Source: Macrostomum lignano (taxonomy: Eukaryota). Taken from it: 33,798 nucleotides of DNA. The stretch is taken from the NCBI GenBank assembly GCA_002269645.1, contig NIVC01000711.1, forward strand, positions 1 to 33,798, in the 5' to 3' direction. Positions 12,347-33,798 of the stretch are shown piece by piece. The notes below the pieces were generated by a model. That model had not been told where the DNA came from, did not search any database, and saw only the letters and a list, made by a program, of their open reading frames with translations. Position 1 is the first letter of the stretch. Every line of letters starts with the position of its first letter. The position numbers and the translations under genes are program-made.

Positions 12347-12401
12347 CTGGCGGGCGGGGGAGTGAAGACTCGGCCATGTTCGAATCCCACTTTTTGGCAT
12401 A

Positions 12402-13860: not shown

Positions 13861-15017
13861 GCTTAAAACTGACTCTCTAAAAATAGTAAAAAACTTCTCT
13901 AGCGTACATTAACCATAGTTAATTGAAAATTGGGCGAACCTGGCTTCCGATCTCCACAATATTTAAACTTAGTTGGCAGTGGGAATACATAGGCCTATGT
14001 TCATGAGTTCCTCCGTACTTTAGTACGAGTCTCGCAAACTGGACTGAATTTGTTGTGAAAGTGAGCTTGCAAAGCGCCGTCGTTTATTGCCTTGTTATTT
14101 TTTTCTTGATACTGCTGATTTGGCCGCGGGGAAGTGGGGTGCAGGTCTGGGGTGGAGGTCTTTAAAACTAACTGATGCACGGGACGGGGGGATTGTTATC
14201 AGTTTTATTATTATTATTGTTCAATAACGGTAAGAAAATAATTAGTGCATACACATTTGTAACGTGTAAACATATCTGTATGTGTACATATAGGCGATAT
14301 TGCCTGGTGATTTGAATATAAGGACTGAAAAATTCTACTGAGCCATTAAAAATAGATTTTGTTGAGATTTAAACGGACTTCGAAATTTTAAATTTTCACA
14401 AAAACCCCTTGATTAAATTTTAAACCATGAGCCATTCTCGGTGCCCATCCTACGTTCATGAGGTGTGTGTCACCTGCAATATTAGTATGCTCGGTGGACT
14501 AAAGCACCATGTAGCGAATGAAGGCTGCAGTGTCACCCGATGGCTACTATGCCATGAATGCCAGTCCGTTGAACTCTTCACTGTTAGAGGCCAAATAAAG
14601 AGGCATAAAAATCATTCGACTGTTAATTGGAGCTCTGCTGAGGACCGCGAGCAGGCACGCATTACTGCTCTGGAAGTTGCACGTCAAGAGGAACGCAACA
14701 GGGCGGCAGAACGCATTCGAGAGCCGGTGAGCAATTTGAGTCAGGTTATTACAAGCTTATGCGGCCGAGTAACGAACACTGGTGACCAGCCCAACGCCCA
14801 GCCTGCTGCTGCTTCTGCTGCTCTACTTGATGGTGATGTCGGAGCTCCCCTGCTTGATGCTGCTGATGGAGGTGGCACCCCTGACTTCGAGCTGAATGAG
14901 CTGGACACCGCTTTCTTCGAGAACCTCGATGGTGAGCCTGAAGCACAGGAGCAGCAAGAAATGCAACAGCAGCAGCAGGCTCGAGGAATTGACCCCGAGG
15001 GGACTGAAACTCGTCCC

Positions 15018-15089
15018 GGCGCGATCCGTCGGACCTCCACGAGGTGCGCCCTGGGCCCTACCACTGCCATGGTGGGGCACGAACACGAC
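15018..15089 (+). ncRNA. HDV-like self-cleaving ribozyme at the LINE 5' end
   Basis: Folded by hand. P1 GGCGC/GCGCC(CU); P3 ACC/GGU with L3 UCCACGA; P1.1 CC/GG(15053-54); 9-bp P4 GCCCUACCA/UGGUGGGGC; J4/2 ACGAA with putative catalytic C15080; P2 GUCG(G)/(CA)CGAC. Confidence 0.72.
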
Positions 15090-18000
15090 CGAATCCACAT
15101 TGCTGTTGATTGGGCTGTCAAGGAGAGAGAAAAAGCAGACGAGCTTGACCCGACGGACTCGACATGGAATAGACTCCCACGCAGCGGGGACGTCGAAGTA
15201 AATCCGGGGCCGAGCGCCGAGTGCGTCATCTGCAGAAGAGGCCTTAGGAAAAGCTGGCTCGTGTGTGCTGGCTGCCAAAGCCAGGTGTACCAAAAATGCG
15301 CTGGGATCACCAGAAGCGCAGCGGAGAAGTGCAAGCAGGACAGAGACCAGTGGCGGTGCGAAGCATGCGCGCCAAAAGCTAGGTGCGTAGAATGCCAGCG
15401 ATGCCGCGTTAAAATCAAGTTAAACACCAAGGCGGTCGAGTGCTCGGACTGCAAGCGTGCCTTCCACAAAGCGTGCACAAAGCTAACCCGGCGACAGCTG
15501 AAACTGCTAGGCGATAGTGACGTCTGGACGTGCGGCGACTGCACGGCAGAGTGGCCGGCAGAGGACAAGGTAGTCAACACCCGGTTGAGACCTGAGGACA
15601 ATGAAAAGTGCTCGAAGTGCTGTAGGAAGTTCCAACAGCGCCAGAGCCCGGAGCAGTGCCGAAAGTGCAAACGGTGGACACATGCTAAGTGTACCGGCAA
15701 GAAGCGAGGACGGCAGTACTACACCCAATGGACGTGTGAGGGGTGCCAGGCGAGTGAGTTGGAACCGGAAGTCGCCCGCTCTGATGAGACCATGGAGTCG
15801 ATGACAGCAGCGCAAGAGGAGACTGGGATAACTATCTCACCGGAGGATACCAACATACGAGACGTGCCAAGGTCACCGAGCGGGGCAAGCTCTAACGACA
15901 CCGAAGCTGAGGATAACATCGCTGACAGCTGCCGGTGCTGTGTCTGCGCCCGCACGGTCGGCAACGAATGGAGCTTGCGCTGTGCAAATACCAGCCAATG
16001 GTGCCACCTGAAGTGCGCCGGACTAGACATCAAAACCGTCAAGAGGCAGCCAAAAAGCTCATGGACACAATGGTGCTGCCCGGTGCACGCCAAAGGTGGT
16101 AATAGTAGCCTAACGCAGGTGGACGAGAAGCATGTGCAGCCGCAAAGCGGACGGTGTGGCTACAAGGAATGCAACCGCCGCCTAAAACCGGAAGCTTTCC
16201 TACAGTGCAACAGCTGCCCGATAAAGGTACACGTGAGCTGCGGCGGCACAAGTAGCCGCGCGCTCATCGACAAGTGGCGCCGCGAAAAGTCGTGGGCATG
16301 CCGCCTCTGCCAAGCGGCCGGGACAGCGCACACAGCTGAGCCCACGAGCAGGACAGAAAGTGCGGGCAACGCACCGAAAGAGACGACCGGGGGGCGCCGC
16401 ATCTGCGTCTGCCAATGGAACTGTGATGGCCTGGCACCAAAGATCCCGGAACTGCTAGCGTTCGTGGAAGCCAACGATATTGATGTGGTAGCGCTGCAAG
16501 AGACTAAGACCAGAGCCGAGGATAAGCTGCCAAAGACGCCTGGATACCGGTTAGTACGGCAAGACAGATGGCGAGCCCTGCCTAGGGGAGGAGGAGTAGC
16601 CTTCCTTATTAAAGAGGCACTAGCTTTCCGAGTCGTCAGGCGCAGTGGCGAGGCGGAGGGCATTGAGGGCGGCATGGAGGAGCTTGCCATTGAAGTGTTC
16701 TGGACCGACAGTGAACCTGTGCGGCTGTACAACTTCTACGCCCCCCCCCCCACCAAAGGGCCCGGGCACGGATACGGCTATGGCTCAACTGCAGGCGTGG
16801 CCCGAGGACGACTGGGGACTCTGGCTCGGCGATGCCAATGCGCACAGTAACAGCTGGGACAGCGACGCTCGCGGGGACGCCCGAGGCGAGATGCTGGAAG
16901 ACTGGATCAGTGAACGTGACGCCATCATATTGAACGACGGCTCCCCGACCAGGCGTGGTAGAGGCACGGAGCGACCTAGCGCACCCGACATCACGCTGTG
17001 CAGCTCTGCCATCTACCGACGTTGGAGACCGGAGTGGAAAGTGGAGCGGAGGCTGTGCTCGGACCACGCCCCCATCCTGATCAGGGGAGGGTCGCAAGAA
17101 GACCGCTCAGAGGAGGCGCGCCTTACTTGGCACTGGAAGAAGGCGGACTGGGAGGCGTACCGAAGACAGATCGAAGCAACTCTGGCGGATAGCGAGCCGG
17201 AAAAAACGGTGGCAAAGGAGGAGGAGAGATTGCGCAAGATCGTGTTAGCGGCCGCGTACAAATGCATCGGGCTGATTAAGCTGAGTAGAGAGGAAAAGTT
17301 CAGCCTGAGTGCCGAGGTCGAGGAGGCGCTGGCAGAACGCGATGCCCGGTTGTGGGGACCCGAGCAGGCGACGGACGACGCAGCGGCCGCCGGCCAAAAC
17401 GGAAGTAATGCCGACGAGGACCCGATTGCTAAGCTCAGGGATGACCTTAGAGAGAAATGGTGGAGTCGGGTCACGCAGACAAGAAGCACCGAAGATATGT
17501 GGAAGCTGATAAACGGTTGTAAAGAGAAACCGCCGAGAGTCCCTGCCGAGGTCATAGCCCAGGGAGAGAGGAGGCATGTAAAGCCGGCGGACAAAGCCAC
17601 GGCGTTCGCCAAGGCCTACGCCAGCATCAGCGACGTTAAGGTCCCGCGGGCAAACAGGCATGTCAAACGGCAGCTAAACAAAGGACTGCGGCAGGCAGGA
17701 AAGGCCGGGGACCCAGTGACCACGGAAGTCGAGGTCAAACGAGCGCTGGAGGAGATGGACGGGAGCAAAGCCCCAGGGCCGGACAAAGTGCACCCGCAGC
17801 TACTCAAGAACCTACCGCCAACCGGGGTGGCTGCCTTCACTAACCTGTTCCAAAGATCATGGCAAAGGTCCGAAGTTCCCCAAAACTGGCGATCAGGTGA
17901 AATCATCCCGCTGCTGAAGGACGGACTGGACCCGGAGATCACATCATCGTACCGCCCCATCTGCCTGACAGCCACCATCGGAAAATGGCTAGAAAGGGTG

Positions 18001-20092
18001 GCCAGCAACCGGCTATACCACGCGCTGGAGAGCAGAGGCCTACTTGCCGAAGAGCAGGCGGGCTTCAGGGCCGGCCGCACCACAGCAGACCAAGTGCTCG
18101 CGCTGTGCCAGGACATCGCAGACGGTTACCAGCTAAAGCTTAAAACGATCGTAGTACTGCTAGATTATGCGAAGGCATACGACACGGTATGGAGAGACGG
18201 CCTGTTAGAGAAGATGCGGCGGCTAGGTATCGACCCGGTGCTAATCCGGTGGGTCCAGGCATGGCTCTGCAACAGACTAGCCTGGGTCCGCCTCGGCAAC
18301 GAGCGCGGGAGTACGGTGGTCATGAAGCAGGGGATGCCCCAGGGCAGCGTGTTGTCACCGGTCCTTTTCCTGATTTACATTAACGACGTGGTGGAGCAGG
18401 TAAACCAGCCGGTCAAGATCAGGCTGTTCGCCGACGACCTGGCGCTGTGGGTTCAAGCGGAGACGGTGGAAAAAGCGGCGAGAAAATTGCAGTTAGCGGT
18501 GTCGGACGTGGCAGAGTGGAGCAGGAAGTGGCTACTCCGGCTAAACCCTCAAAAGTGCGAGGTGGGCCTGTTCAGCCTGAACAACAAGGACCGTGTGGAG
18601 AATGTTGCGCTGACCATCGAGGGAAAGCGCCTCCGCACCACGGAGGTCATCAAATACCTCGGCGTCACCATCGACCGACGACTGACGTTCGCCGAGCACA
18701 TCCGCCTCTGTGTCATCAAGGCGCGAAACCGGATCAGCCTGTTGAAGAGACTGCGCCACAGGCGCTAGCCTACCCTTGGAGCTAGCCAGAACGGCGTACG
18801 TGGCGCTGGTCCGACCTGTCATCGAGTACGCGACGGCGGCGTGGAGCCCGTGGGTGTTGGAAACGCAGTGGGCCAAGGTGGAACGATGCCAGCGGGCGGC
18901 AGCCAGAGTCGTAACCAGACTGCCTAGCTCGACACCGGTCGAAGCGCTGCTCGAAGAGGCTAGGCTCCAGGACTTGCGAAGCCGAGCTAGAGAAGCGGCT
19001 GTCAAACTGTACGATAGCTACCTCAGGCACGCTGCGGAGGACAGTCGCAAATGCTTAGCCCGTGCAGATGTCCGACAGCGCCAAAAGAGGACAAACTGGC
19101 GCCGGGAGGCCAGTAAAGAATGGGCAGCTATCTTTGACACGGACCCGCCAGCTGATGACCACACGTGGACCGCGCCGTGGGATGGTGGAGCGGCAAACCT
19201 GGTGTTCCCGCAACCCGGCAAGAGAGAGGTATGGAAGGAGGAAAACAAAAAGGTAGCGCGTGAGAAGCTGAGCGAGTGCAAGTCGGACGTGATTATTTTT
19301 ACTGACGGGTCAGTCGACAAGGAAGGAAGAGGTGGAGCCGGCTTCAGCGTGTGGGCCGAAGGCGTCGAGATCGCGACTGGCAGCCACCCTGCAGGACCCG
19401 GATGCTCATCGACGCAAGCGGAGCTTGCTGCGATCAAGGCGGCAGTCGAGTGGATTGACCAGCAGCAGACAGGGTGGAGCGCCATCACCATAGCTTGCGA
19501 TAGCTCGGCTGCACTCCAAGCGCTGAATACCCCGCCACGGCGTCGAAATAGGCTGGCTAACGCGATCCGGACCGTGCTGGATAAGTGGACCGACAGGTCG
19601 GTGCGCTTCGTATGGGTGGCCGGACACGCAGGCGTGGAAGGTAACGAACGAGCCGATGCGCTAGCGGCAAAGGGCCGCCCCCTGAACGGCCCGGAAGGAC
19701 CAGGATGGACGGCGGAAGCTGCAAAGCTGGAGATAAGGAACCGCATGCGGAGGCGAGCTGTATGGAAGCACGCCAGGTCGGAGGCGACTTACAGCGCCGG
19801 CGGACTAAACTGGCGCATCGAGGCCAGCTGGCCGGTGACGGAGAGGGCCGATTACGCTCGCTTCCGCGTTGGCCATAATACCAAGTTGGCGGCGTACGCC
19901 CACCGCATCGGCCTGGCTGCCACAGCGAACTGTCAGCACTGCGAGCAAGGAGACCAAACGGTGGAGCACGTTACCATCGAGTGCCCAGCTTTGGATAGCG
20001 TCAGACGACCACTCGGGATAACCAGCCTGAGCGCCCACTGTAAGGACCCGGAAGCCGGCCGCCGGCTGTGGAACGCGTTTCAGCGACTGTAA
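15069..20092 (+). CDS. LINE polyprotein with two frameshifts (poly-C at 16741-16751; about 18754)
   Basis: 2A motif GDVEVNPGP, then five PHD-like fingers. APE: QWNCDG, ALQETK, LGDANAHS, SDHAPI. RT: KAPGPD, YRPICL, QAGFR, LLDYAKAYDTVW, GMPQGSVLSP, LFADDL, KYLGVTID. RNase H: FTDGS, QAEL, CDS, WVAGH, NERAD. C-terminal CQHC...EHVTIEC. Confidence 0.92.
15162..15212 (+). other. 2A (StopGo) ribosome-skipping motif ...WNRLPRSGDVEVNPG/P
   Basis: Exact D(V/I)ExNPGP consensus at 15189-15212, immediately before the first PHD finger. Confidence 0.85.
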
Positions 20093-21209
20093 AGTAAGGC
20101 ACTGCACCGAGGGAAACAACCAACAGAAACAGCAATGCGAAAAACAAACAAACAGCAGCAGCAGCAGCGGCGTGCAATCCCTGTTCCCGGAAAAAATATG
20201 GAGCGTGCCAGGATGCTGGCAGAAGTCAGCCTGTCCGACGTGATTCGCGATATGGACTCAGGCCCTGCGCCTCCACCACCGCCACCACCGACTGAGGTTC
20301 AGCCTGCGGCCGCTAATGAAGTACTGCAGCAGCCAGCACCTCTCTGCATCCAGCTGGTTCTGCCCAGCAGTGTTACGGGTGAATATTGGATTGACTTGGG
20401 AGGGGCTTTCCGTATTCGCCTGAGCAATTCTCAATTCTAAACTAATAATTCTAATGTACCAGTCGTTAAATATTAATTAAGCAACATTTTGTGTTGAATT
20501 AAATTGCGAGATGTTTATCAGTATATTGCAAAAGCGAGTAATATTCATATTTCTTTTCATCATCTCATTGCTATTTTTTAAAGTTCATATTTATGCAGGC
20601 AGTGCGCGTTGATCAGGCTGTGCTTGGGTGTGAATGCAGAATGGGTTTGATTCTGGTTGGGTTTGTAATCTCCTTCTTTAACTTGTGCTTCTAATAATGT
20701 AGCGTATCATTGAATTTTTATAATATAAATTTTAAAGCGCAATGAAGCGCTGAATTTTGAAAAAGTTTGCAGCTTTGAGTTATTTTGAATTATTTTTAGA
20801 ATTCGTTTTATAGGACCTTTTTATTCGACCCTTTATTAGACCCCGAAATTTGGCACGTAACGACAAGACCCGAAGTACAACTTTCGAAAATATGTACACT
20901 TAATACGAGCGTATATCCACAAATTAGGGATTTGAATTTACTTTTGCAAGAAAAAATAATTTCACAAATATGTATTTCAGCAAATTTCCTCATCTAATTC
21001 TCATCGAAAATGCTCTAAGCAGTGTCATCAACCAAACCGAGATGCCTTCTTCAAGAGACACTTCATCATCATCAGCAAGTGATCGGCCGCTTGAGTCTAC
21101 CAATTTTGCTATCGAAATCGAACCAACTAGTGAGTCAATCCAATGTGATTAGTAAAGCCAGTAAAGTAAACTCTTCCCTCTGTAAATACAAGCAAAAGTA
21201 GTCATAAAA

Positions 21210-21408
21210 TCCGATTCACCGTTTCTCGATTCACCGATTCCCGATTTACCGATTCTCGATTCACCGATTCCCGATTTACCGATTCTCGATTCACCGATTC
21301 CCGATTTACCGATTCTCGATTCACCGATTCCCGATTCGCCGATTCCTGATTCACCGATTCCCGATTCGCCGATTCCCGATTCACTGATTCCTGATTAACC
21401 GATTCCCG
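21210..21408. repeat. 15-bp tandem repeat (GATTCACCGATTCCC / GATTTACCGATTCTC) upstream of pPolB
   Basis: About 13 copies visible; it produces the spurious RESVN ORF. Confidence 0.93.
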
Positions 21409-21440
21409 CACAATAATGAGGTGGAATCAGGAATATGATT

Positions 21441-21446
21441 TATAAA
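21441..21446 (+). promoter_or_regulatory. Candidate TATA box (TATAAA) for pPolB
   Basis: TATAAA starts 42 bp upstream of ATG 21483. Position is the only support. Confidence 0.35.
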
Positions 21447-21482: not shown

Positions 21483-24400
21483 ATGCTAATTCATGCAGGC
21501 ATTCAATTCAGCTCGGCTATTCACGCTAGTGCGCATGATGACACGCTGCAGGTCAGACGCTTCACTCCAGCATCAAGAGGTCTCGAGCCATTTCATTTTT
21601 TATCATCAACGAAGTTTGCAGTGCTACAGGCTGTTGAGATGAGATTCGATTCATCCGAGAATAATTCTATTCGAGCGCAGCTCAAGTTCAACATCAGAAT
21701 GGTGAGAATCAAGGAAACTGCGGTAATCAATGCAGAAGATAAGTGGATCGCATGCGGTCTTGAGCTTCTCTCTGATCTAAGAGATTTTGAATTGTGGTGG
21801 TTGCAGCAGTATTCTGAGCTGGAACGCAAGATCGATGCCTACAATTCAAATGGGAGCGGTTGGATGGTTGAGCAAATCAACTATTTTGATCTGTGCTCTG
21901 CCCTCACTGATCGCATTCGCTACTATCGTGGACGATGCGCGAATTTTACTTTGCCCAATCAGCTGGCGGTTAAGAAGGCCATAATCAACCCACCGAGCGA
22001 TGGAAACAATTGCTTTCTGTTTGCCTGTCTCGCTTACCTGCACAACAGAGATCCTGGTGTGATGAAGTCTTGCCATCGACTAACAACTTACAGCAGATGG
22101 TTGGATGAAATCGATCTGAGCGGCACAACACTACCAGTCGCAATTTCCGATTTAGACTTTATAGAGGAAGAGAATTCCGAAATCTGTTTCACAGTTTTTA
22201 GCTGGGAAGATGATGAGGCCTATGTCATTCGCCAGCCTCTTCCTGGGATTTGTGCCTCTCGCAAGGTTATTCCTCTACTCTTGCTTCGCAACTCCAGCTC
22301 CGATGATGCTGATTATGATGATGGTGGTGATGAGAATTGTGGGACTGGACACTGGTGTGCAGTTTCGAACCTGGACCGACTCCTGAACAGCAAAAAAGGT
22401 CTGAGGAATCGCAAATGGTGTGAGAAGTACATTTCTCCGTTTCGATCCCAGGAAGAGTTGGAGCGGCATCGAGACAGCTGCAATCCTCAACTGAAACCAG
22501 CCATCATGGAGCGCCTGCCTGATTCAAGTAGCAACACAATGCAGTTCATGGCTTGGGAAAAGACAATCAGTCCCCCATTTGTTGTCTACGCAGATTTTGA
22601 AGCTCTGAACACCCCACGTGAACCAGTGGAGCCTGGAAGAGAAGTTACTGTCACCAAGTTAACTGAGCATGTACCTGTAGCTGCTGGCTACATTGTTATT
22701 CCAAGAGAGGGTATGAGCAGCAAAATTCTGAGGCCGAGTGAGGATGTTTTCTTTTGCAGCGGACCCAATCCGAATTCTGTCGTGAAACAGTTTTTGGCCT
22801 CACTCGAACGTCTTGCTCGTGAAGTTTATGGTTGGAATACCGAGTTTAGTCATCAGATTGCTGACAGAAACAGTGATGACAACAGGCGCAGCTTTCAAGA
22901 TTCCACACAGTGCTATTTATGCAATGCAGTGTTCATTTCATCTTCTGACAAGCACTGGGATCACGACCACCTCAGCGGTGAATACAAGGGTGCTGCCTGC
23001 GCTTCGTGTAACAAGCTTGCTCGGCTAAAACGGCGATTTTTGCCAATAGTTTTCCACAATCTTCGCGGATATGACCTGCATTTGATTTTCTCAACTGCGC
23101 TGGGTGACATGACTGGTTGGAGGGTGAGCGTCATCCCCCAAACTGCTGAGTCGTACCTCTCCATGAGGGTCGAGTTCCAGATTGATGAGTATGAGAAAGA
23201 TGGCGTAAAAAAGCCCCTGTTTTTCACGCTACAATTCATCGACTCACTGCAATTCCTACACAGCAGTCTTTCTCAACTTATTAAGAACTTGCCGGAGGAC
23301 AAATGTTCCATCACGAATGCGATGCGATCAAAGTATCCAAATCTTTCAAGCGATGTACTGTTTAGTAAGGGAGTTTTCCCTTATGATTATCTCTCGAATT
23401 TGAATGTGCTTGATGATCGCCAACTACCAAAAGTAGAAAGCTTTTTTAACCGACTCACCAACAGCCACTGTACCGAGGCGGAGTATCGGCATGCGCAGAA
23501 GGCCTGGACTGAATTCGAATCTACAACATTGCGCGATTACATGCTCTGCTACTTGGAGCTGGACATCAGGCAACTAGCAGATATCTTTGAGGGGTTTCAA
23601 AGGCTGAGTTTGCAGGAAGACAAGCTAGATCCGGTGCATTTTGTGTCAACTCCAGGCCTATCATTCGCTTCTGCACTAAAGTCTTCTCAAGTCAAGATCG
23701 AACTGCTAACTGACCTCGAGATGTATAAAATGTTTGAAAAAGGAATTCGGGGTGGAATGTCTTTTGTCAATGTACATCATGTCCAGAGCGAAAGTAGCGA
23801 TGATGATAATGAACCAGCAGGTAGGAGTTTACTGGCTGTTGATGCTAATAATCTTTACGGTCATGCGCTCACAATGCCCCTACCTGTTGGTGGCTTTCGC
23901 TGGCTCAGTCAAGAGGAGCTCTGCTCATGGTCCGAGTGTCGCTTTCTTTCCCTGGATGATGACGCTCCAATCGGCTACCTTGTCGAAGCGGATTTGCTCT
24001 ACCCAGCCGAAATCCACACGGCAACGGAGGATCTTCCATTCGCCCCATAGAAAAGGTGTCCGAATTTTGAAGAATTTCCGCAGTACATGCGAGAATTATG
24101 GGTACTGCTTCAACATGACAATGATCATTCTCATCATCATCAGCAGCAGCAGCCCGACGCGAACACAACTGAGAATCCTACCGTTGCGCGCTACCGTGGA
24201 GTACAAAAATTAATGCTCACATGCCACAACAAGTTTTCCTATGTACTGCACTCGTCTGCTCTCCGATTCTATCTATCGCACGGAATGAAGTTGCATGGGC
24301 TCCACAGGATGATCGAATTCAGGCAAGAACCTGTCTTCGCGGACTACATTAAGATGAATAGCGAGAAGCGCTCTATGGCGAAAAATGATTTCGAGAAGGA

Positions 24401-25241
24401 TTTCTATAAACTGAAAAATAACTCCCTGTTTGGCAAAACAATGGAGAACGTGCGCAAGCGGCGGGACATCAGAGTGTGCAGTGACAAGAAAAAAGCCAAG
24501 ACTGTTTCTTCACAACCAAATGTCGCATCATTCACAATCATTACGCCGTCACTCAGCATCTTTGAGCTTCAAAAGCGCGAATTAACTCTTGATCGGCCAA
24601 TTTTCATGGGGCAGTGTGTTCTAGATCGCTCCAAGATCATCATGTATCGACTTTACTATGACAAAATAAAACCCATGCTAGAATTCCGTGATGGAGCGAG
24701 AGTTCGAGTTTGCGGTGGCGATACAGACTCGTTGTTTTTGAGCTTAGAGAACCTTAGTTTGCAGAGAGAAGTGCTGCCAATCCTGCATGCCGAAGGCCTC
24801 TTGGACACCTACAATTTTTTCACTAATCATCCTCTCTTCTCGAATCGGCTAAAGGCCAAGCTAGGCTGCATTAAAGATGAAGCTGGTGGACTGCAACAGA
24901 TTGAGTGGGTGCTGCTAAGGCCCAAGCTCTATTCTTTCCTCGCTGAAAGCTCGGCGGCATGCAAAGCAAAAGCAAAAGGCATCCAACGAAGCGTGCTGAA
25001 GAATGAAGTCTCCCACGACGACTACGTCAAGATTTTCAAGGGGGCTTCAAAGCTGTCGCTCACTGTTCGTCGAATTGGAAGTGAGAAACATCGCGTTTTC
25101 ACCATTGAGCAACGTAAGCTCGCTCTCAGTATCTGGGAGGACAAGCGAGCGTGGACTGGCTCGAATTCAAGTCTTCCGTTCGGCCACTTTCAGCTGTTAA
25201 TCAGGGGTAGTCCGAAAAGGACAGCGGACTGCTTAGAGTGA
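21483..25241 (+). CDS. polB: Protein-primed family B DNA polymerase (pPolB), one in-frame TAG at 24048-24050
   Basis: Exo motifs YADFEA, FHNLRGYD and YLELD. An Endonuclease VII-like insert reads CYLC...DHDHLSGEYKGAACASCN. Polymerase motifs are DANNLYG, KLKNNSLFGKT and GDTDS. The two ORFs are in the same frame (FAP*KRCP). Confidence 0.96.
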
Positions 25242-25957: not shown

Positions 25958-26521
25958 TTAGCACAGAAAACGGACAAGCAAGGAAAAGTCGGAAATTAGC
26001 ATGCTCATTGTTTTTGCACCACTGAGAACGAATGAGCCATTGTGAAAAAGCAGGCATTTGCAGAAGCTTAGTTTGCAGATTAAAGCAGAAAATGATTCTG
26101 GCTCATATTGAGCATTTGGTAAAGTGTTCACAAGATTAGCGAGGGGAAGTGCTCTGCACAAGTCAATTTTCCCATGCGCAGTAATAGTTTTAATCCGCAC
26201 ATGCACAGTTTGATGAGGCAGCAGTTGAGCAGGCACTCTGCGATGCAGCATAGCCACGAAGCGACGAGCGGCCCTGACTGAGGCCGAGTAGCTCCGGGCG
26301 CCACAGATACTCAGTTGTCCAGTCGGATAGAGCAATAGAGTCACTCTGGGACTCCGCATCCTCTTGATAAGCACTCGGGGCCAGACGGGGCGATAGATGA
26401 CATGAGCCATGCTGAGAGCCAGTTCCCGCAGAGGCAACTGGGCACCCCTGTCTCCAGCAAGTCTCAGATCCACGCCGCCGACCAGATTGGTCACTCGCAG
26501 GGCTGTCGCAGGTGTACTCAT
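25958..26521 (-). CDS. TATA-box-binding protein (TBP)-fold protein encoded by the Polinton
   Basis: Intronless, 187 aa, with two TBP repeats: VTNLVGGVDL...IYRPVWPRVLIKRMRSPRVTLLLYPTGQLSICGARSYSASVRAARRF and QYEPESFSALICKLSFCKCLLFHNGSFVLSGAK. AATAAA lies about 25 nt after the stop (25932-25927). Confidence 0.85.
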   Translation of the reverse strand: MSTPATALRVTNLVGGVDLRLAGDRGAQLPLRELALSMAHVIYRPVWPRVLIKRMRSPRVTLLLYPTGQLSICGARSYSASVRAARRFVAMLHRRVPAQLLPHQTVHVRIKTITAHGKIDLCRALPLANLVNTLPNAQYEPESFSALICKLSFCKCLLFHNGSFVLSGAKTMSMLISDFSLLVRFLC

Positions 26522-27035
26522 TTAGAGAGTCCTTTCTGTCAGTGGTGCTGTCTTTGCGAGCTTTTGAGTGGTGCGGGCACACCTCGCTTCTTAAGTTGAT
26601 ACAGAACTTCGGTTTCAGCCAGTTGTAGTACAGTAATACATTTTTCACTGCACAACCAGTATCAGATGCTTGAATCAAAGGTGATCCCAGATCCTCTAGG
26701 TTGTACACCTGTCTGCCAAGCAGCTCAGTCAGAAAGATGGACTTTTTCACCCCGCTTGTCCAGGTGGGACCGTAAGCAATGTTTAGAATGTCATTAGCCA
26801 AATGCATGTACGGTCGGGATCCATCTGTCCACTTGAAATGATGCAAATTCTTTGAGAGCTTTCTGTAATGTACTTGCATCTCAGGTGAGATTCTGTCCCA
26901 TGAGAACGGAGAGGCGTACACGTGATGAGTGATATGGTAACTGCCAGCCCGGACTTGGGCAATGGCCAGCTCCTTCACAACGAAATCTCTGCTCGATCTC
27001 TCGCGTGGGAAGCCTTGGAAGTCAATATAGTTCAT
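26190..27035 (-). CDS. Polinton accessory protein, DnaQ/DEDD-like nuclease fold (tentative); the C-terminal ~110 codons overlap the TBP gene
   Basis: N-terminal YIDFQGF...FVVKELAI, HHFKWTDG, KSIFL...NLEDLGSP and CAVKNV...WL resemble a family I recall from Polintons and other invertebrate DNA viruses. Confidence 0.55.
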   Translation of the reverse strand: MNYIDFQGFPRERSSRDFVVKELAIAQVRAGSYHITHHVYASPFSWDRISPEMQVHYRKLSKNLHHFKWTDGSRPYMHLANDILNIAYGPTWTSGVKKSIFLTELLGRQVYNLEDLGSPLIQASDTGCAVKNVLLYYNWLKPKFCINLRSEVCPHHSKARKDSTTDRKDSLNEYTCDSPASDQSGRRRGSETCWRQGCPVASAGTGSQHGSCHLSPRLAPSAYQEDAESQSDSIALSDWTTEYLWRPELLGLSQGRSSLRGYAASQSACSTAASSNCACAD

Positions 27036-27047
27036 GATCGGATGGTT

Positions 27048-27770
27048 TCAAGACGCATGATGTCGGGAAGCCGACTCAGTTCCCCTTCTTAAATAGTTTT
27101 TTTTCCTGCTCAGGTGTAGCCAGGCTCTCCCACTCCCGAATCCCTTAACTGTATGATGTGCAGGGGTGGCCTCTGGAGAAACAGCCGGTTTAGAAATTAG
27201 CTGCCTTACTGACTTTCCTATAGCCGAAGCTGGGATGTTAAGCTTTTTGTCTTGAAGCAATGAGACAAACTCACTCCAGCCTACCGGCTCGCTGGCACAT
27301 TTCGAATCCCTCACCGCACTGTGAAACAAATCCAGGATGTTTGAGGAGGGTATTGTCTTCCCAGAAATTTGCGCCTCGCCATTTTCGGACACCCGAATCA
27401 GAGAAGGATTGCCAGATAGGATGGCCCATAGACTGCGGGCTCTCGCTTTAAACTTCTGCGGCACGGATTGGGTGATCTTTTCCCCCCAGCTGCTTGGTGC
27501 AATATCTGTTTTCAGCATCTTTGCATCACTCGCAGGTACCGCACCATCCTTTCCAGTCCGCTTGCGCTTGGCCAGCAAACTCTTCATCGCATCATGGTAC
27601 ATGGCAGCTTTCACATCGTCTGGGCAATCCTCGGCAAGCAAAATATCATTGCATTTCCTCTGCGCATATCTCACAGCAGTGTCGAGTTCAGACTCAACTG
27701 GCTTCAAATTCTGTGTGAGCATGTCGTACTATGACTTGGGGATCAGAACCATCTCTGAGAACTTATTCAT
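27048..27770 (-). CDS. Conserved Polinton protein of unknown function; nonsense TAG at 27731-27729
   Basis: MNKFSEMVLIPKS*YDML... continues in frame into ORF 27048-27722. Motifs IL...DDVK...Y, GE..I.G..I..SNILDL and P.GW..F...L...NIP...IG are typical of a recurrent Polinton gene. Confidence 0.7.
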
Positions 27771-28110
27771 TTTGCTTCTTTTTCTTCACTAGCTTTATTA
27801 GAATGTAGAGAATTTTGATAAAACCCGTATTTAGCAGATCCGCAGCTCTTCTATGTGTAGAAATTTTGCGGATTATTTGCTTTTGCTTCACCAGCGCTGC
27901 CTTTTGAGTGAGTGAGAACGACAGAGTGTTTTGCAATAGGTTGTAGCAGGCCTCAATGAGAAATTCACGTACGGCTTTTGGACCCGCTCTGATCAACAGA
28001 CGTTTAAAGCTGATGGAATATTTCGGTGACGCGAGAACATCAAACAAACTTTCATGTGAGTCAAAGGTTTCCATTATCATTAGTGTTGCAGAATATAGAA
28101 CAAATGGCAA
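27763..28110 (-). CDS. Small conserved Polinton protein
   Basis: LIEACYNLLQ..LSFSLTQKAALVKQKQIIRKI resembles the small gene usually found next to the ATPase. Confidence 0.65.
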   Translation of the reverse strand: MPFVLYSATLMIMETFDSHESLFDVLASPKYSISFKRLLIRAGPKAVREFLIEACYNLLQNTLSFSLTQKAALVKQKQIIRKISTHRRAADLLNTGFIKILYILIKLVKKKKQNE

Positions 28111-28127
28111 AATCTCGGCTGTTATTC

Positions 28128-28781
28128 TTAAGTGTAAACCAGGTGGGGTCGCTGATTGGGCAGGATTCGAGCCCGGACCCGCAGCTCATCAGGGGTGGAA
28201 GGGTGAAAATCCAGGAGCAGGTAGGCTCCCCTGCCGTGCGATGTCACGTGCTTGAACACTGACAGCAGAAATCCGGGCTTCTCAGCAAAGCACTGCCTGC
28301 CCAGCGCTGCAATCTGCAGCTGGTCTCTGGGGTTCTTCATGATCACAAAGTACATCGCATTCAGACTCATTGTTCGCAACTCCTTCCCTTTAAAAAATAC
28401 ATTTTGGGTGAGCATAACCAGAAAGCAGGGCAAATGATGGGCAATTCCAGTGAAAACATTTCGCATTGCAGCAGAATTGGAAGTTTCTTCAATCAGGTCA
28501 TCAAATACAACCAGGTCATTGGGTCTCAGTGCGGTCTCGATACTGCTGGGAAATCCCTGCTGCAGGTGCACGCCGAGACTGCTGAGCTCAGAGTGTGCTG
28601 CTTGTGAAATCCCGTAGTACCACAGAACTCTCCCAGGCTTCACATCAAACAGGACATCCTTGTATTGTATCAGATGTTTCACGAAGGTTGTCTTTCCTGC
28701 ATTTGTAGGCCCGCTGACAATCATGCAGCTTCCCTGTCGCAGGCGCACATCATAACAGTTTATCCGCTCACGTGTTTCCAT
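28128..28781 (-). CDS. A32/FtsK-HerA-like DNA packaging ATPase
   Basis: Walker A GPTNAGKT, Walker B LVVFDDL, HH...LTQN.F, R.MSLNA.Y.V.MKNPRD, YLLLDFHP.TP...R.R. Confidence 0.93.
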   Translation of the reverse strand: METRERINCYDVRLRQGSCMIVSGPTNAGKTTFVKHLIQYKDVLFDVKPGRVLWYYGISQAAHSELSSLGVHLQQGFPSSIETALRPNDLVVFDDLIEETSNSAAMRNVFTGIAHHLPCFLVMLTQNVFFKGKELRTMSLNAMYFVIMKNPRDQLQIAALGRQCFAEKPGFLLSVFKHVTSHGRGAYLLLDFHPSTPDELRVRARILPNQRPHLVYT

Positions 28782-28813: not shown

Positions 28814-29332
28814 CTAATTAAATTTCTTTTTTCTTAAGCAACTCTCAAACCTTTGCAGCATTCTCTCATTCAAGTGGCTCTGCTGATTTGCATGGAGGTG
28901 CCGCAGAACCCACTCAAACGAGCGCTTGAAACGAAACTTTTGATAGGCAAACAAGAGACAGAACAAACCGCATTTAGCAGAGTCACAGCTCTGAATTCGA
29001 TTCACATTGCTACGTAAGTAGAATGGAGAATACCAAAAGGATTTCAGTGCTCTGTGAATGATCTCTAAAGTGCTGGAGTCCCAGCCCAGAGAGTTAAAGA
29101 GTTCTATGGAATTCTCCTTATCAGCATAACAAACCACCCAGTGACCGAAGGATGAGCTGTACTGAAGCAGAAAGAAAATAAACTTACATCGAGATAAATT
29201 TCTTTTGAGAGTTGCTCGCTGAATAAAGTTTAAAGCATAAGATGTTTTATTTATTGAATTCAAGACAATAATTAAACAGTTATTTTGTGGCAAAAAGCTT
29301 TTAGCCAGTTTAAGCAGTTGAAAAGCATCCAT
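28814..29332 (-). CDS. Adenain/Ulp1-like cysteine maturation protease
   Basis: GHWVVCY, ELFNSLG and RIQSCDSAKCGLFC motifs; lies between MCP and ATPase. Confidence 0.88.
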   Translation of the reverse strand: MDAFQLLKLAKSFLPQNNCLIIVLNSINKTSYALNFIQRATLKRNLSRCKFIFFLLQYSSSFGHWVVCYADKENSIELFNSLGWDSSTLEIIHRALKSFWYSPFYLRSNVNRIQSCDSAKCGLFCLLFAYQKFRFKRSFEWVLRHLHANQQSHLNERMLQRFESCLRKKKFN

Positions 29333-29355: not shown

Positions 29356-30638
29356 CTAGGATGGAAAATCTAGCAGAATCTCCCTGTGCTTGGTGACCTC
29401 AATCAGTGAGTCATACAGGCACATAACAATCAGAGATACAGGCTCCTCCAGGGCCTGTCGGAAGCGAATCTCCAGCCGCAAATTGCCCTCCTTCTGTCCG
29501 TACCACAGGGCCGCTCCCTCAGGCGTGAGATCGAATGCGAAAGCTGTGTTGCCGTTGGAGAACAACTGGTAGGGGACCCACGGAACCGAGTTGGTAGGGC
29601 TGGCTGACTGACAGCTTTTCAGGTAGTGCAAGTACTCTCTCACGAATGAATTATTCTCAGGTGCAAATGCAGCGTGGCACATGGCTTCACCACCTTTCTT
29701 TAGTGCTAGCTGGCTGAGGTTGAAGCTCTGGAACTCGAAAGGGCTGGAATGGTGATGGCCATTGAAGGCTCGGTGGTTCACGAAGACCAGCATAACGAAC
29801 TTCGGCAGTTTGCCATGGGTGAATCCTTCAATGTTTTTTGACTGAATTCCCTGGGGTAGAATAAAGTTTTGCATTTCGGTTCGCTCGATGGGGTAGAGTG
29901 CGTTCTGATTGGTCAGTCCCTGTTCATGCGCCAGGCTGATGTGAGGCGCCACTTTGACTCGGCGCAGGTTCAGAATGCAGTGGGAGATTTCCATTCGGTA
30001 GGCTGTGTTGTTATCATCTGGGGTTCGAATGGCGAATGCAGCATCACTGGGCATCAGCTTGATGTGCAGGTGTAAATTGTTCAGCAGCAGAACAGGACAC
30101 TGGAAGATGTCGCTGAGCAGCGGTCCCGCATACTCCACCCAGCGGGACTCCCTGTGTCTCTCGGCATGCCCCTCAGCAGCAGTTTCGGGTTCCAGGAATC
30201 CGGCGGGGTAGAACTTTAACTGCTGAGCATCGGATGAGCCATGAGAGCTTTTAGGTAGGCATGGTAGGGGTAGAGCTGGTCTCCGCCTGATACAATGCGC
30301 TGGTTGATGCTCACGATTACATCTGAGAATGCCGTAGACAGGACAAAGTTTTCTGGGTGCACCCCACTGTCTCTGCGCTCAGTGACAACTCCATCGGCAT
30401 TTCGAACCTCCTCCCTCATCAAAGCCCCGCCAAGCCGGACTAGGCGACAGCGAATATACAGGAATGAGCTCAGCAGATCAGTGTACTCATCAGCCGATGG
30501 ATGACAGTCGAATTCAATAGGTGAGTTAGTAGCAATAGAGTTCACGGGGTGAATATCAACATATGTGGATTTTTCAATGGCAGTCTGCAGCATGGGGGAC
30601 TTGAACAAATCGAGTCTCGGGTTGAATCCGTAAGCCAT
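29356..30638 (-). CDS. Major capsid protein (double jelly-roll), one frameshift at about 30235-30245
   Basis: LDLF...QTAIEKSTY...HP, PIEF, EYTDL, F...V.VSIN...YPY.AY, GPL.SDIFQ...LLN, G.LPK..., FNG....PFEF, YQLFSNGNTAFAFDLTP, GNLRLEIRF..AL...V. Confidence 0.9.
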
Positions 30639-30640
30639 TG

Positions 30641-31051
30641 CTATGAGAGCGAGTCCAGAACACGTTTCACAGTCTTTTTGCTCACTTTTTGCTTTCCTTT
30701 GCCTGTTTTCTTGCTTTGAGTTTTAGACCTCCCTTTCTTAGGTTTATTTCGCCCTGACTGGCTTCTTTTCGGTGATTTCTCCGTCTTACTCTTTTTCTTC
30801 TTTTTTGTCTGCTTCTTACTGCCCTGTTTGACTAGTCGCTGCTTTGGTCTGTTTCTATTGCTTCTGCTGTTGCTGCTGCTACCGCTGGCGGTGGTATGGG
30901 CTGGCTTTGATAGCGATATTGACTTTGTGGAAGCTTCTGGAGGAGGCTGGTAAGTCATGATTCCTGGAAAACTCCCACAGCCATAGAGCGCCGGCTTTTG
31001 GCTTCCTGCCAGAGTCCCTGAATACTGACGAATCAGCTGTTGGTAGTTCAT
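30641..31051 (-). CDS. Lys/Arg/Ser-rich basic protein, putative DNA-condensing core protein
   Basis: Sits between the minor and major capsid genes and has a strongly basic C-terminal half. Its ATG overlaps the upstream TGA (ATGA). Confidence 0.65.
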   Translation of the reverse strand: MNYQQLIRQYSGTLAGSQKPALYGCGSFPGIMTYQPPPEASTKSISLSKPAHTTASGSSSNSRSNRNRPKQRLVKQGSKKQTKKKKKSKTEKSPKRSQSGRNKPKKGRSKTQSKKTGKGKQKVSKKTVKRVLDSLS

Positions 31052-31874
31052 TGTATTAGCCTTTCCCGAATATGAACTGTGAGCAGAACAGGGCTGCTGC
31101 TCCGAGCAGTCAGTGAGTAGCCAAAGATGTCACGCAGTTGAAATCTAATGCCATGTAGAAAATTAGCTTTCTGAATCGGGAAGAAAATTGCTTTCTTAAA
31201 CACTTTGCTCATGTAGCTGCCCCATTCGACATCGGATGACATGCTCACAGTTCGCAGCACGGAGTTCCAGTTACAGTTTGTTCGCTCCACAATGCTGCAG
31301 TGCAAGTTGATCAGGTTGGTGGGCGGACAACCGATGCAGCAGAGTGACACTTGCCGTCCGGGTGGGATCTTCACAGGCTGGTTTCCGAATCCCAGCCACT
31401 GCAGAATTTTACTTGATGGAAGGAACAATTCTGCTCGAGCCGTGTTGTTGAGCACTACTGTTCTCAACTCTTGGATTTCAAACTTTATGCCAATATCTCT
31501 AGCGCTGCTCCGCCCCATTAAACCGGACTCATCAGCTTCCATTTCAGACTCCCTTTCGCTCATTGCATCGAAGAACAGTGACTCAGAGTTGGCCAGCAGC
31601 TCATTCAGGCGTTCACCAGTTCCTCCACTCTAGCAAAGCGTCCGGGTTGAAGAACCAGGGCCTCATGCTCTCTTCCATCTGAGACAGTGAAGCAGTAAGG
31701 CTCGTCAACATTGAACCATGCAGCAGGCAGATGGATTTCAGCCAGACCTGCCTCATAGTCCACATTTCGATCCAAGTAAATAGATGAAGGCAGGTGAAAA
31801 TGAAAGTCACTAGGAGTACCTTCAGCATTTTCGCTACAAATGATGATGCTTCTCATAGTTGGGAATGGCTGCAC
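31048..31874 (-). CDS. Minor capsid (penton-like, single jelly-roll) protein, frameshift at about 31612
   Basis: SDFHFHLPSSIYL...YEAGLAEIHLPAAWFNV at the N-terminus and INLHCSIVE...VLRTV...FFPI...I...LRD..G at the C-terminus. Adding one G restores VEELVERLNELL. Confidence 0.82.
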
Positions 31875-31886
31875 AATGTCGGTATC

Positions 31887-32953
31887 TTACACTTTTCTTA
31901 AGTCCTTCTCATCCACCCAGTCAGTGGACTTGTAGCCGGCCCACTTGACGAGATATCGGATCTTACCCTTCCGCTTCTCAGTCTTCAGAACCTTCTCGAT
32001 TACATACAGCCGCTGCGAGTCCGGAACAGCTTGCAGCTCATGCTCGTGGAAGAGGCCTCTTATGTCTTCCCCCTTCATGTCTCGAATCCTGTACATGTAG
32101 GGATAATGCTTTGGTGCCCTAGACACTATGGTGTACACCTCTTCGCTCCAGTTCGCCTTGTATCCCTTCCTGAAGAGTCTGGGTGCATTGGAAATCCGCA
32201 CTGATTGGTTTTCACAGAACTTCGGTTTTCTCAGTTTCTCAACTGTCTCAATCGCTTTCCCATCATAAAGGTTCATCCACACTTCAGTCTCGTTTGCTTT
32301 GCTGACATTCATTGGTGTAGTCTTGATGCTTCTGTGGAAAGTATTGTTATAGGACTTGACCAGTTTAGGCAGCACATCAAGCCATTGTAGAGTGCTGTTG
32401 TGAGTAAAGTAACGCCACATCTTGCTTTTTAAAGTTCGATTCCATCTTTCAATTATGGCTGCTTTGTGCACACTGCTAGTTGGAAACGCCAGAATCCCCC
32501 GGTCTATGCAGAACTGGCGAAAAATTGCGTTGACAAACTCCTTTCCCTGATCTGTGCGGACAGTGCGCGGCTGCCGCTTTGAGCTCTTCAGCATGCTCTC
32601 AAACGCAGATTTCACTTCTGCCGCGCTCTTAGACTTCAGTGCTCTGGCCATTGCAAATTTAGACAAAACATCAATGCAGGTGAGAATGTATTTATGCCCG
32701 CGATTATACTTTGCAAATGGAATCATTTCCACCAGATCCATCTCCCACTGATCATCAATGGTCTCACTATTATTGGCGCCCTTGGAAATCGTACTCTAGC
32801 TGGCTTATGCAGAGTGTGTACTGGCTGCTGACTTAGCCACTGCTCAATGCTCTTGACTCCAATATGCTCGCCTCTTTTTCGCAGTTCAGGTTGCAGTTTT
32901 GAAGAACTGCAATAGCTCGCAGGCTGATTTGGGTTGAAATAAATTTTTTCCAT
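31887..32953 (-). CDS. Retroviral-type (RVE) integrase with C-terminal chromodomain, frameshift at about 32760
   Basis: YFNP..PASY, W.MDLVEM, ILTCIDVLSK, TDQGKEF, IERWNRTLK, YN...H.SIK..P, F.KGY..NWS.E and YLVKWAGY. Adding one C restores IIVRPIDDQWEMDL. Confidence 0.93.
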
Positions 32954-33116
32954 TTTCGGAAACAAAGAAACATTTTTATTTTTAGGTTTTCTTAAGACAT
33001 TGAAAATGCATAGCGCATGTGAAAGCAAGCATATATTTTTTTTCAAAGAGATGGAAAGCAGGTCTGGATAAATAGCTCGTAGCACAGAGTTTGTCTCAAT
33101 GTCAGAGGGTCTGCAA

Positions 33117-33798
33117 TCAGTCGAAGCACGGCCTGGGCAGCTTCATGGCATCCAATCTGCGCAGAGCGAATGGCGGCTGCTTGCGTTTCCTGGCGTTCTC
33201 AGCGGCGGCTGCTTGAGCTCGGAACTGGTACCAGACTGGGTCCTCTTGCAGATCAGTGTCCTGCCGAGGAATCGCTCCAGCTGCTGGCTTGGTCAGTTGC
33301 AGAGGCGTTGAAGTGGCAAACGCTGTGTCGATTTGCAGATTGGATGGCATGCCAGCCTCGCCAGCAGCAGCAGCAGCATCGTCCTCCGCCTTCACTACCG
33401 GCTTGGTCTCTTCCGCGTTTTCGCCAGCATCGTCTTCATTTTCGATGCTGTCGGAGGAAGATCCCGACTCCAGCTCGTATGCATCGGAAATCTCACGTGG
33501 AGCCGATAGCTGCTCGTCGATCCAATCCGCGTACTGCCACAGCTTTCGCCACAGCGGCGGTGTCAGCGGCACGGTGTTCCGCTTAAGAAACTCGTCGCAG
33601 CAGTCCTCCGGCAATCGCTTTAACCAGATAATGCCGTTTTTCACTTCGATGAACTTATCGAAGCCGAGTTTGACAACCTTTGGCTGTTTGTCCAAGGCCG
33701 CCTTGACAAGTGATCGCTTCAACTCCTTGAGCTTCTCCCACTGACGGATGTTCAAATTGAAGCCGGGACTCCAGGTTTCAAACTCGCAGTGCTGCCTG
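33117..33798 (-). CDS. Hypothetical Polinton protein with an acidic low-complexity middle; frame runs off the window end
   Basis: The frame is open to position 33798. No recognisable family. Confidence 0.55.
   Translation of the reverse strand, partial: RQHCEFETWSPGFNLNIRQWEKLKELKRSLVKAALDKQPKVVKLGFDKFIEVKNGIIWLKRLPEDCCDEFLKRNTVPLTPPLWRKLWQYADWIDEQLSAPREISDAYELESGSSSDSIENEDDAGENAEETKPVVKAEDDAAAAAGEAGMPSNLQIDTAFATSTPLQLTKPAAGAIPRQDTDLQEDPVWYQFRAQAAAAENARKRKQPPFALRRLDAMKLPRPCFD

Follow-up and report, generated by a model that had tools for sequence, protein, structure and literature searches.

A divergent TATA-binding protein encoded by Polintons of Macrostomum lignano and its pairing with lineage-specific TATA-like words

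The DNA face of the TATA-binding protein (TBP) is among the most conserved surfaces in biology. Most of the Nucleocytoviricota and mirusviruses that encode a TBP also encode their own RNA polymerase. For Polintons, the timing of gene expression and the rarity of particles from intact capsid genes are, to our knowledge, open questions. A closer functional precedent comes from the herpesviruses: KSHV ORF24 is a TBP-like factor of a nuclear DNA virus without an RNA polymerase of its own, and herpesvirus structural genes share a modified TATA word, the TATTWAA late promoter, as described in PMC12529657 and PMC6541308. In PMC12529657, ORF24 is described as having none of the acidic TFIIB residues, as assembling with Pol II beforehand and as depending on five other viral proteins.

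Openly searchable full-text literature combining Polinton, Maverick or adintovirus with TBP or TATA yielded Starrett et al. 2021 as the sole relevant source. The Fig. 5 legend of that paper (PMC8502044; preprint 10.1101/697771) gives a TBP label for MELD viruses with adintovirus-like PolB. In the searched text of PMC8502044, TBP is a legend abbreviation that names no element and comes with no analysis, and the word "promoter" does not occur; the first 4 million characters of the supplement gave no match for TBP, and the paper's figures or GenBank maps may name a TBP-carrying element. Term look-ups found TBP and TATA absent from PMC8097293, PMC10748475 and 10.64898/2026.06.19.733378 and nothing relevant in PMC12220804; at the level of such look-ups, vertebrate and nematode Polinton surveys and the 2026 PLV framework mention neither TBP nor a lineage-specific promoter word. 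The original prediction, to which TBP was not known as a standard Polinton gene, agrees with this searchable literature, where TBP is not widely catalogued, and the 2021 legend label reduces the novelty. What is new is that, inside one genome, three TBP lineages pair with three words.

The element and its TBP gene

The window, that is, the whole stretch of 33,798 nucleotides analysed here, is an entire M. lignano contig (NIVC01000711.1). It carries the left end only of a Polinton, which starts with AGTAGT at 21197 and continues past the contig end. The plus strand of the element encodes the protein-primed family B polymerase (pPolB), and the minus strand carries, in order, a PC4-like gene, the integrase, a likely minor capsid gene, a basic ORF, a likely major capsid gene, the protease, the ATPase, two unknown ORFs, ORF-X and TBP. 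The features are as follows, where "word" denotes the TATA-like octamer described below:

21197..21420 (+): left element end, AGTAGT terminus and 15-bp tandem array; the terminus is shared by the terminal inverted repeats (TIRs) of sister copies
21441..21446 (+): ordinary TATAAA box, 42 nt 5' of the pPolB ORF
21483..25241 (+): pPolB with endonuclease VII domain (PF03175, PF02945), split in this copy by an in-frame stop
25958..26521 (-): TBP-like gene, 187 aa, two repeats (ORF, Pfam, PDB search, model)
26588..26595 (-): CTTAAGAA word, about 75 nt 5' of the TBP ATG, within the upstream ORF
26190..27035 (-): ORF-X, 281 aa; first ~170 aa conserved, tail overlapping the TBP gene in another frame
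27086..27093 (-): TTTAAGAA word 5' of ORF-X
27048..28080 (-): two conserved ORFs (224 and 105 aa) without Pfam match
28125..28132 (-): CTTAAGAA word 5' of the 105-aa ORF; its TAA doubles as the ATPase stop codon
28128..28781 (-): P-loop ATPase, likely packaging ATPase; weak AAA Pfam matches only
28831..28838 (-): CTTAAGAA word 5' of the ATPase
28814..29332 (-): adenovirus-type protease (PF00770, E 9.4e-5, over cut-off)
29356..30638 (-): likely major capsid gene, two frames in the window copy; by size, position and conservation, no Pfam match
30641..31051 (-): small basic ORF, likely core protein
31193..31200 (-): TTTAAGAA word, ~150 nt 5' of the basic ORF; homologous place conserved in family B
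31048..31856 (-): likely minor capsid gene, split in the window copy; 275 aa in the C211 copy
31895..31902 (-): CTTAAGAA word within the last integrase codons, 5' of the minor capsid gene
31887..32953 (-): retroviral-type integrase with chromodomain (PF00665, E 3e-14), split in the window copy
32989..32996 (-): CTTAAGAA word 5' of the integrase
33116..33798 (-): PC4-like coactivator gene, 3' part, cut by the contig end (PF02229, E 1e-7 on the C114 copy)

The combination of pPolB (PF03175), integrase (PF00665) and protease (PF00770) identifies the element as a Polinton. As candidates for an A32-like ATPase and a double-jelly-roll capsid protein, it has a P-loop ORF, from motif and position likely the packaging ATPase, and a conserved ORF of 430–460 aa, both without a specific Pfam match; genome searches with the families Pox_A32 and Peptidase_C5 gave 0 matches and were uninformative. 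Sister copies (C211, C114 and C878) are ~17 kb long with TIRs, and two of the three (C114, C878) have 6-bp target duplications. No RNA polymerase family was matched among the element ORFs scanned with Pfam. The endonuclease VII-like domain within pPolB (22890-23020, plus strand; PF02945, E 3.8e-7) is also present in the C114 copy. PC4-like coactivators, a second Pol II general cofactor per element, occur in families A and B (window 33116-33798, minus strand; L031:1873-2535; L036:292-933), and plus-strand ORFs at 33170-33744, antisense to the window's PC4-like gene, were rejected as genes. Outside the element, amid many tandem arrays, translations at 14427-20092 (+), 9981-10592 (+), and 6866-7615 and 12008-12454 (-) presumably represent non-LTR retrotransposon-like sequence (Cys-rich fingers, reverse transcriptase), an integrase fragment and CoA-transferase exon-like pieces.

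The 187-aa frame at 25958-26521 is complete from ATG to stop and requires no introns. Pfam TBP (PF00352) matches it in two stretches with E 4.5e-22. A PDB sequence search returned 35 matches at E ≤ 1, every one a TBP or a TBP fusion, with an archaeal protein at the top (E 2e-17). An AlphaFold2 model computed from a 16-row alignment (pLDDT 90.3) superposes on human, yeast, plant and archaeal TBP with TM ~0.8 and rmsd ~2–2.7 Å, and a structure search with this model returned 44 matches to solved structures at E ≤ 0.001. A predicted complex of element TBP with the host TFIIB core, computed without an alignment, scored 0.00, which speaks neither for nor against an interaction. Of the listed data sets holding the sequence, none is recorded as RNA; contigs of four runs guessed to be RNA cover most of the element, which likewise says nothing for or against expression. 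These data bear out the predicted intact, intronless two-repeat TBP fold, and the gene indeed lies last in the minus-strand virion and integrase cluster, facing pPolB. The neighbours described as broken are so in this copy (pPolB, major capsid, minor capsid and integrase are split), with longer frames in sister copies. M. lignano records are the only close relatives that carry a name, and a UniRef fragment of family-A TBP bears that of the worm's own TBP; divergent element TBPs are easily missed (family G has no Pfam match) or misfiled as host TBP.

A genome search with the TBP of family A, that of the window, gave at least 152 matches (150 of 237 candidates were scored, and these are matches rather than copy numbers), of which ~90 by manual count of the listing are near full length and stop-free, at 71–100% identity. 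The gene keeps the same position in the copies examined: all 20 short and all 20 long loci have ORF-X directly 5' of TBP, and in 18 of the long ones TBP is faced by pPolB; two other loci, L037 and L063, have no ORF-X. Family B has a different gene order, a TBP 37% identical to that of A with ~26 long stop-free matches, and again ORF-X directly 5' of TBP. Across 35 distinct intact A copies, dN/dS of TBP is 0.21 (491 deep pairs, which are not independent), indicating purifying constraint, and it is 0.19 in the C-terminal part outside the ORF-X overlap (28 pairs). Elsewhere in family A, values are 0.06–0.08 for integrase, capsid and ATPase and 0.17 for ORF-X; nine close copies of family-B TBP give 0.27–0.46. 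Host TBP (L051) and host TRF2 (L054), with three genome matches each outside any Polinton context, are 27% and 25% identical to the element TBP. Because of these identities and the dN/dS of 0.21, the gene is no one-off retrocopy; near-identity to a host TBP in a single copy is absent. The 187-aa ORF is thus a genuine, divergent, element-borne TBP, functional by selection, and a fixed, selected gene of its Polinton family.

Some copies are mosaic. In L021-L024 (G000:C219 and C130), capsid and ORF-X are 98–99% identical to the window, TBP 85–90% and pPolB 56–69%; in the C219 copy alone, the figures are 99% for capsid, 90% for TBP and 64% for pPolB. The drop in identity within the TBP gene of the C219 and C130 copies suggests recombination there.

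ORF-X has no Pfam match and a single-sequence model of pLDDT 48 (best Z 5.4); its N-terminus may be DEDD-nuclease-like. It overlaps the first 332 nt of the TBP gene (26190-26521, minus strand) in another frame, which the original prediction missed. Among the A copies, 31 of 35 have this overlapping frame open as far as nt 329–332; among the B copies, eight of nine have it open, in the same relative frame, as far as nt 386. Synonymous shuffles of the TBP gene attain an equal overlap in 0.3–2% of cases. The overlap is, judged from these patterns, likely dual coding, which may explain the lower dS in the N-terminal half of TBP.

DNA-facing surface and promoter word of families A and B

To compare residues, we aligned element TBPs (35 distinct intact A and nine B copies) with M. 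lignano's own TBP, using yeast numbering and contact assignments; base contacts and the proline swap are reportedly treated in primary papers by Patikoglou (1999), Spencer and Arndt (2002) and Nikolov (1996). Two of the four canonical intercalating phenylalanines, the C-repeat pair F190 and F207, are retained. At the F99 position, all 35 A copies have W and all nine B copies H, followed directly by a proline in 44 of 44, and the F116 position is Y in 44 of 44. Proline occurs in 0 of the A and B copies at the P191 position, and V122 and T124 are replaced by S and C. Only the first of the two canonical central asparagines is kept: Q158-N159 has become K-T (QNMV replaced by KTIT), with Thr in 33 of 35 A and eight of nine B copies, the remaining copies being unmatched by the pattern. 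The acidic stirrup EPE.F is present in 35 of 35 A and nine of nine B copies and is the best-kept surface. The alignment thereby confirms residue by residue what had been predicted, namely a retained C-repeat Phe pair and EPE stirrup, W and Y at the N-repeat Phe positions, and one altered central Asn.

The substituted DNA-face residues (YP, IKT, S/T at 122, P at 100) are invariant in the copies and in metagenomic relatives, and because of this invariance the replacements, as far as sequence comparison goes, suggest changed specificity better than decay. The changes (Phe to Trp or His, and to Tyr; an extra proline in the N-repeat and none at the C-repeat site; Ser for Val; Thr for Asn) would likely account for an altered word; loss of two Phe, one Asn and Thr124 could also mean weak or absent DNA binding. 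According to PMC12529657, proline at the P191-equivalent site favours T at the first TATA position, and A100P/P191A in TBP is treated in PMC9089689. A simple rule tying the C-repeat proline to T at word position 1 fits families A/B and D-H and serves as a lead only, as it fails in family C, where the C-repeat proline is absent, yet the word begins with T.

The regions 5' of module genes were first searched in two A copies and one B copy (25 windows of upstream sequence). The top 6-mer, TAAGAA, occurs in 16 of the 25, with 26 sense and 0 antisense sites, and WTAAGA occurs in 15 of 25; when windows were placed at random 20,000 times, the mean was 2.9 and no placement exceeded 13. One start coordinate in this set is off by a few bases. 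A comparison of 29 distinct homologous sites, picked by hand, shows C or T at position 1 throughout and A at position 8 in 28, giving the word YWTAAGAA ([CT][AT]TAAGAA). It occurs 21 times in 20.9 kb of modules and three times on both strands of 79.9 kb of host DNA. Its element sites are mostly 35–65 nt before the ATG of virion and integrase genes; words were chosen on the same elements in which they were later counted. YWTAAGAA differs from the canonical TATA box at up to three of eight positions, with G6 in every counted site. No word lies within 110 nt of the protease or of the 224-aa ORF. Ordinary TATA boxes stand 42–76 nt upstream of pPolB (window), PC4 (A and B) and a 444-aa ORF, with none at two other non-module ORFs checked.

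The word sits at homologous places in A and B despite different encoded residues and, once, a different frame, and it persists within coding sequence between families whose capsid proteins are ~43% identical. The family-A TBP gene itself stands behind the word, which means that leaky or host-driven priming would be needed; in family B, this place holds TATAAAA. Some weak reading of YWTAAGAA by host TBP is possible, since crystal structures exist of wild-type TBP on TATA boxes altered at one base, G(-26) and T(-30) among them, as given in the PDB entry titles. Of the predicted altered promoter specificity, what stands is a lineage-specific TATA-like word before virion genes, which may be taken as indirect support.

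TBP lineages, their words and their relatives

All eight capsid-bearing families sampled (A-H) encode a TBP-like protein, and a capsid-bearing family without TBP, sought as a control in the M. lignano genome, was not found. The proteins form three lineages, each with its own word: YWTAAGAA in A/B, TATAAATA in C and TATAAGC in D-H. Over 17 elements, own-word sites per element number, sense/antisense, 7–9/0–1 in A, 6–7/0 in B, 7/0 in C and 5–7/0–2 in D-H, as against 0–3 sites for the other lineages' words. When each family is represented by a single copy, 38 of the 49 own-word sites fall 20–170 nt before an ORF start (6.8 expected), as do two of eight sites of the other lineages' words. TATAAGC is common to five families whose TBPs are 31–46% identical. 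This word was picked by strand bias alone, so that its placement before ORF starts (20 of 28 sites) checks the pattern independently. TBP is unmatched at seven pPolB loci that show no capsid, ATPase or integrase match; the three of these with TIRs have 0–1 words. TBP and word pass down jointly, so that the three lineages provide at most three points, short of proof of co-evolution.

Recognition of the divergent TBPs is uneven. Profiles match the TBP-like proteins of D-H in 10 of 13 stretches, with none in E_C1390, I_C105 and G_C4948; in Pfam, F and H are over the TBP cut-off, D and E under it, and G has no match. Family C comprises ~10-kb TIR elements in which pPolB is not matched. Its very divergent TBP-like frame has weak profile matches in seven of seven stretches and 91 genome matches; Pfam gives E 1.2e-4, just below cut-off, in one of two copies, and the atlas value is 0.95, with low recognition. 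The family-C word is a textbook TATA box, which host TBP should read.

Several further observations concern these families. Family-C loci (L086:2025-L087:1575 in G000:C4, and C261, C296, C416, C522) have integrase, capsid, protease, ATPase and mini-TBP and, without a pPolB match, are likely non-autonomous. In C4 there is also a Fic-domain gene (E 8e-14), and a second word, GGGTATATAAG, stands 5' of the family-C non-structural genes. In family H (L189:1440-2846, minus strand, G000:C297; also C362), a TBP-like domain and a deoxynucleoside kinase (PF01712, E 6.7e-24) share one frame of ~470 aa, a possible TBP-dNK fusion. The TBP-like frames of D, F, G and H (L161:1145-1699, L180:2315-2929, L172, L189) have no ATG before the first strand and start just past a pyrimidine-rich ...AG resembling a splice acceptor, and that of family C, also without ATG, overlaps the upstream ORF. 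The capsid-less pPolB elements L149-L150 (C566), L155-L156 (C41) and L157-L158 (C558) are ~9.5 kb with long TIRs and have no capsid, ATPase, integrase or TBP matches.

Outside the genome, metagenomic proteins resemble family-A TBP at 70–72% (P0002-4), 52% (P0009) and 30–34% identity (P0019, P0160, P0161), P0019 being 64% identical to family-B TBP, and all of these share the diagnostic residues of element TBP. The 65-row tree set held 57 of 141 library rows with full core, and the 50-row set a subset plus D-H. In a quick tree of the 50 rows, A and B TBPs form one group (SH-aLRT 98) that joins short metagenomic TBPs (97). The latter (170–193 aa; P0027, P0029, P0030, P0034, P0035, P0066, P0097, P0125) may belong to other mobile elements. 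Free trees place A+B apart from host TBP, and an AU test does not reject their grouping with it (p 0.66). C and D-H are long branches whose placement shifts between trees; C falls with A+B in one and with D-H in another that came with a long-branch warning, and monophyly of all element TBPs is not claimed. Of the predicted "captured, divergent" TBP, divergence stands (27% identity to host TBP), and capture from the host is neither shown nor excluded, and may be ancient.

When 31 viral and 32 metagenome candidate stretches were scanned with a TBP alignment, not one was confirmed as a relative. A scan with an ATPase alignment confirmed none of 143 viral stretches and gave nine short metagenome loci without a TBP match; a scan with P0029 left all 37 viral stretches unconfirmed. 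Nothing in the phage collection matched, and none of 36 candidates was a homologue of family-F TBP at E ≤ 0.001.

Proposed role and comparison with known systems

The probable role of the element TBP is, in our view, that of a viral TBP for late genes which brings in host Pol II, in the manner of herpesvirus ORF24/BcRF1 but without belonging to that family. To the observed fold, selection, word, position and lineage pairing, this reading would add predicted binding, recruitment and timing. Host TBP would start the early genes pPolB and PC4 from their ordinary TATA boxes; element TBP, once made, is predicted to bind YWTAAGAA before the capsid, packaging and integrase genes; its retained acidic stirrup would bring host TFIIB and RNA polymerase II; and the structural genes would be switched on as a second wave. 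The earlier interpretation keeps its divergent element TBP and loses competition with host TBP and a Pol III role, which find no support here; the data point to the element's own late genes.

An unlikely alternative is that host TBP/TFIID, or ORF-X/PC4, reads the words and that element TBP is a decoy, binding TFIIB or TBP regulators to dampen host transcription or defence. The TFIIB-facing EPE.F is the surface kept best while several base-contact residues have changed, the family-C word is canonical, and ORF-X travels with TBP in A and B, all of which a decoy would accommodate. It would not predict invariance of the replaced DNA-face residues, which points to new specificity, nor the strongly basic protein (pI 10.9), nor a word that varies by TBP lineage inside one host, as a single host factor would not require that. 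Less probable again is a general substitute that fires all element promoters in cells, or states of chromatin, where host TFIID is limiting, the words being a product of drift and of homogenisation inside each lineage. The three words do all resemble a TATA box, the early genes retain ordinary ones, and copies recombine, as the C219 copy illustrates; against this, YWTAAGAA with its constant G6 is up to three positions off the canonical box, it survives inside coding sequence across the capsid divergence noted above, and TATAAGC is common to five families despite the divergence of their TBPs.

A very improbable reading, in our view, would have the word unrelated to TBP and serving the preceding gene as a signal for its 3' end or its translation, or arising as a by-product of C-termini rich in lysine or arginine. 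The genome is compact and most sites are also near the preceding gene's end; one includes the ATPase stop codon, and several encode LRK or xKK. In the C114 copy, however, the distance to the next ATG is tight (39–65 nt for five of seven sites with an assigned start; the others 110 and 149), whereas that from the preceding stop ranges from -433 to +396; moreover, the integrase-upstream site is non-coding, an ordinary AATAAA stands at the TBP stop in three A copies, and encoded amino acids and frame differ between homologous A and B sites. A recent processed copy of host TBP or TRF2, carried as a functionless passenger, can practically be dismissed: host TBP and TRF2 cores are intronless like the element gene and the AU test does not reject a clade of A+B with host TBP, but 27%/25% identity and a dN/dS of ~0.2 refute a recent or neutral copy, and the gene is present in two families and in metagenomic proteins 30–72% identical.

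Beyond the late-factor role, a private transcription code is possible, though we stop short of calling it probable: a minimal TBP and matching TATA variant per lineage would insulate late programmes from the host and from each other. If true, this would be the smallest known viral pre-initiation switch and a natural series of TBP specificity variants, and three natural TBPs with three words would reveal how TBP specificity shifts. A TBP-gated late promoter would be a concrete switch for Polinton gene timing; if late genes stay off until element TBP is made, endogenous Polintons would seldom show particles. The words also offer a practical marker of late genes and lineages in Polinton annotation.

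Compared with cellular and archaeal TBP (PF00352; PDB 1cdw, 1ytb, 1mp9, 1ais), element TBP shares the saddle, the C-repeat Phe pair, the first Asn, EPE and a basic surface. It differs in being 24–29% identical, with W/H and Y for the N-repeat Phe pair, Thr for the second Asn, and a proline that follows the first aromatic and no longer the third; unlike cellular TBP, it has no N-terminal extension and is encoded by a mobile element. TBPs of Nucleocytoviricota (ASFV B263R-type, mimiviruses, phycodnaviruses) and mirusviruses have the same fold (BFVD TM 0.6–0.74) and are 8–22% identical to it, a weaker likeness than that of cellular TBP; in contrast to Nucleocytoviricota, these elements span 10–21 kb and have no RNA polymerase family match. 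With animal Polintons/Mavericks (adintoviruses), the element shares pPolB, integrase, protease, a likely packaging ATPase, a size of ~17 kb, AGTAGT TIRs and the 6-bp duplication.

The most likely functional analogy is with the beta- and gammaherpesvirus vTBPs (KSHV ORF24, EBV BcRF1, HCMV UL87), where a viral TBP-like factor is likewise combined with a modified TATA word. The herpesvirus architecture, a multi-domain, stirrup-less protein in a six-protein complex, is not that of element TBP, a bare 187-aa core that keeps the stirrup and has PC4 as the only other recognisable transcription gene beside it; host TFIIB would apparently replace the six-protein viral complex. Structural genes behind a modified TATA word are found in both, with YWTAAGAA as the putative promoter here, and under the late-factor reading, a strategy known from herpesvirus vTBPs would also be used by a class of viruses that is far smaller and of a very different kind.
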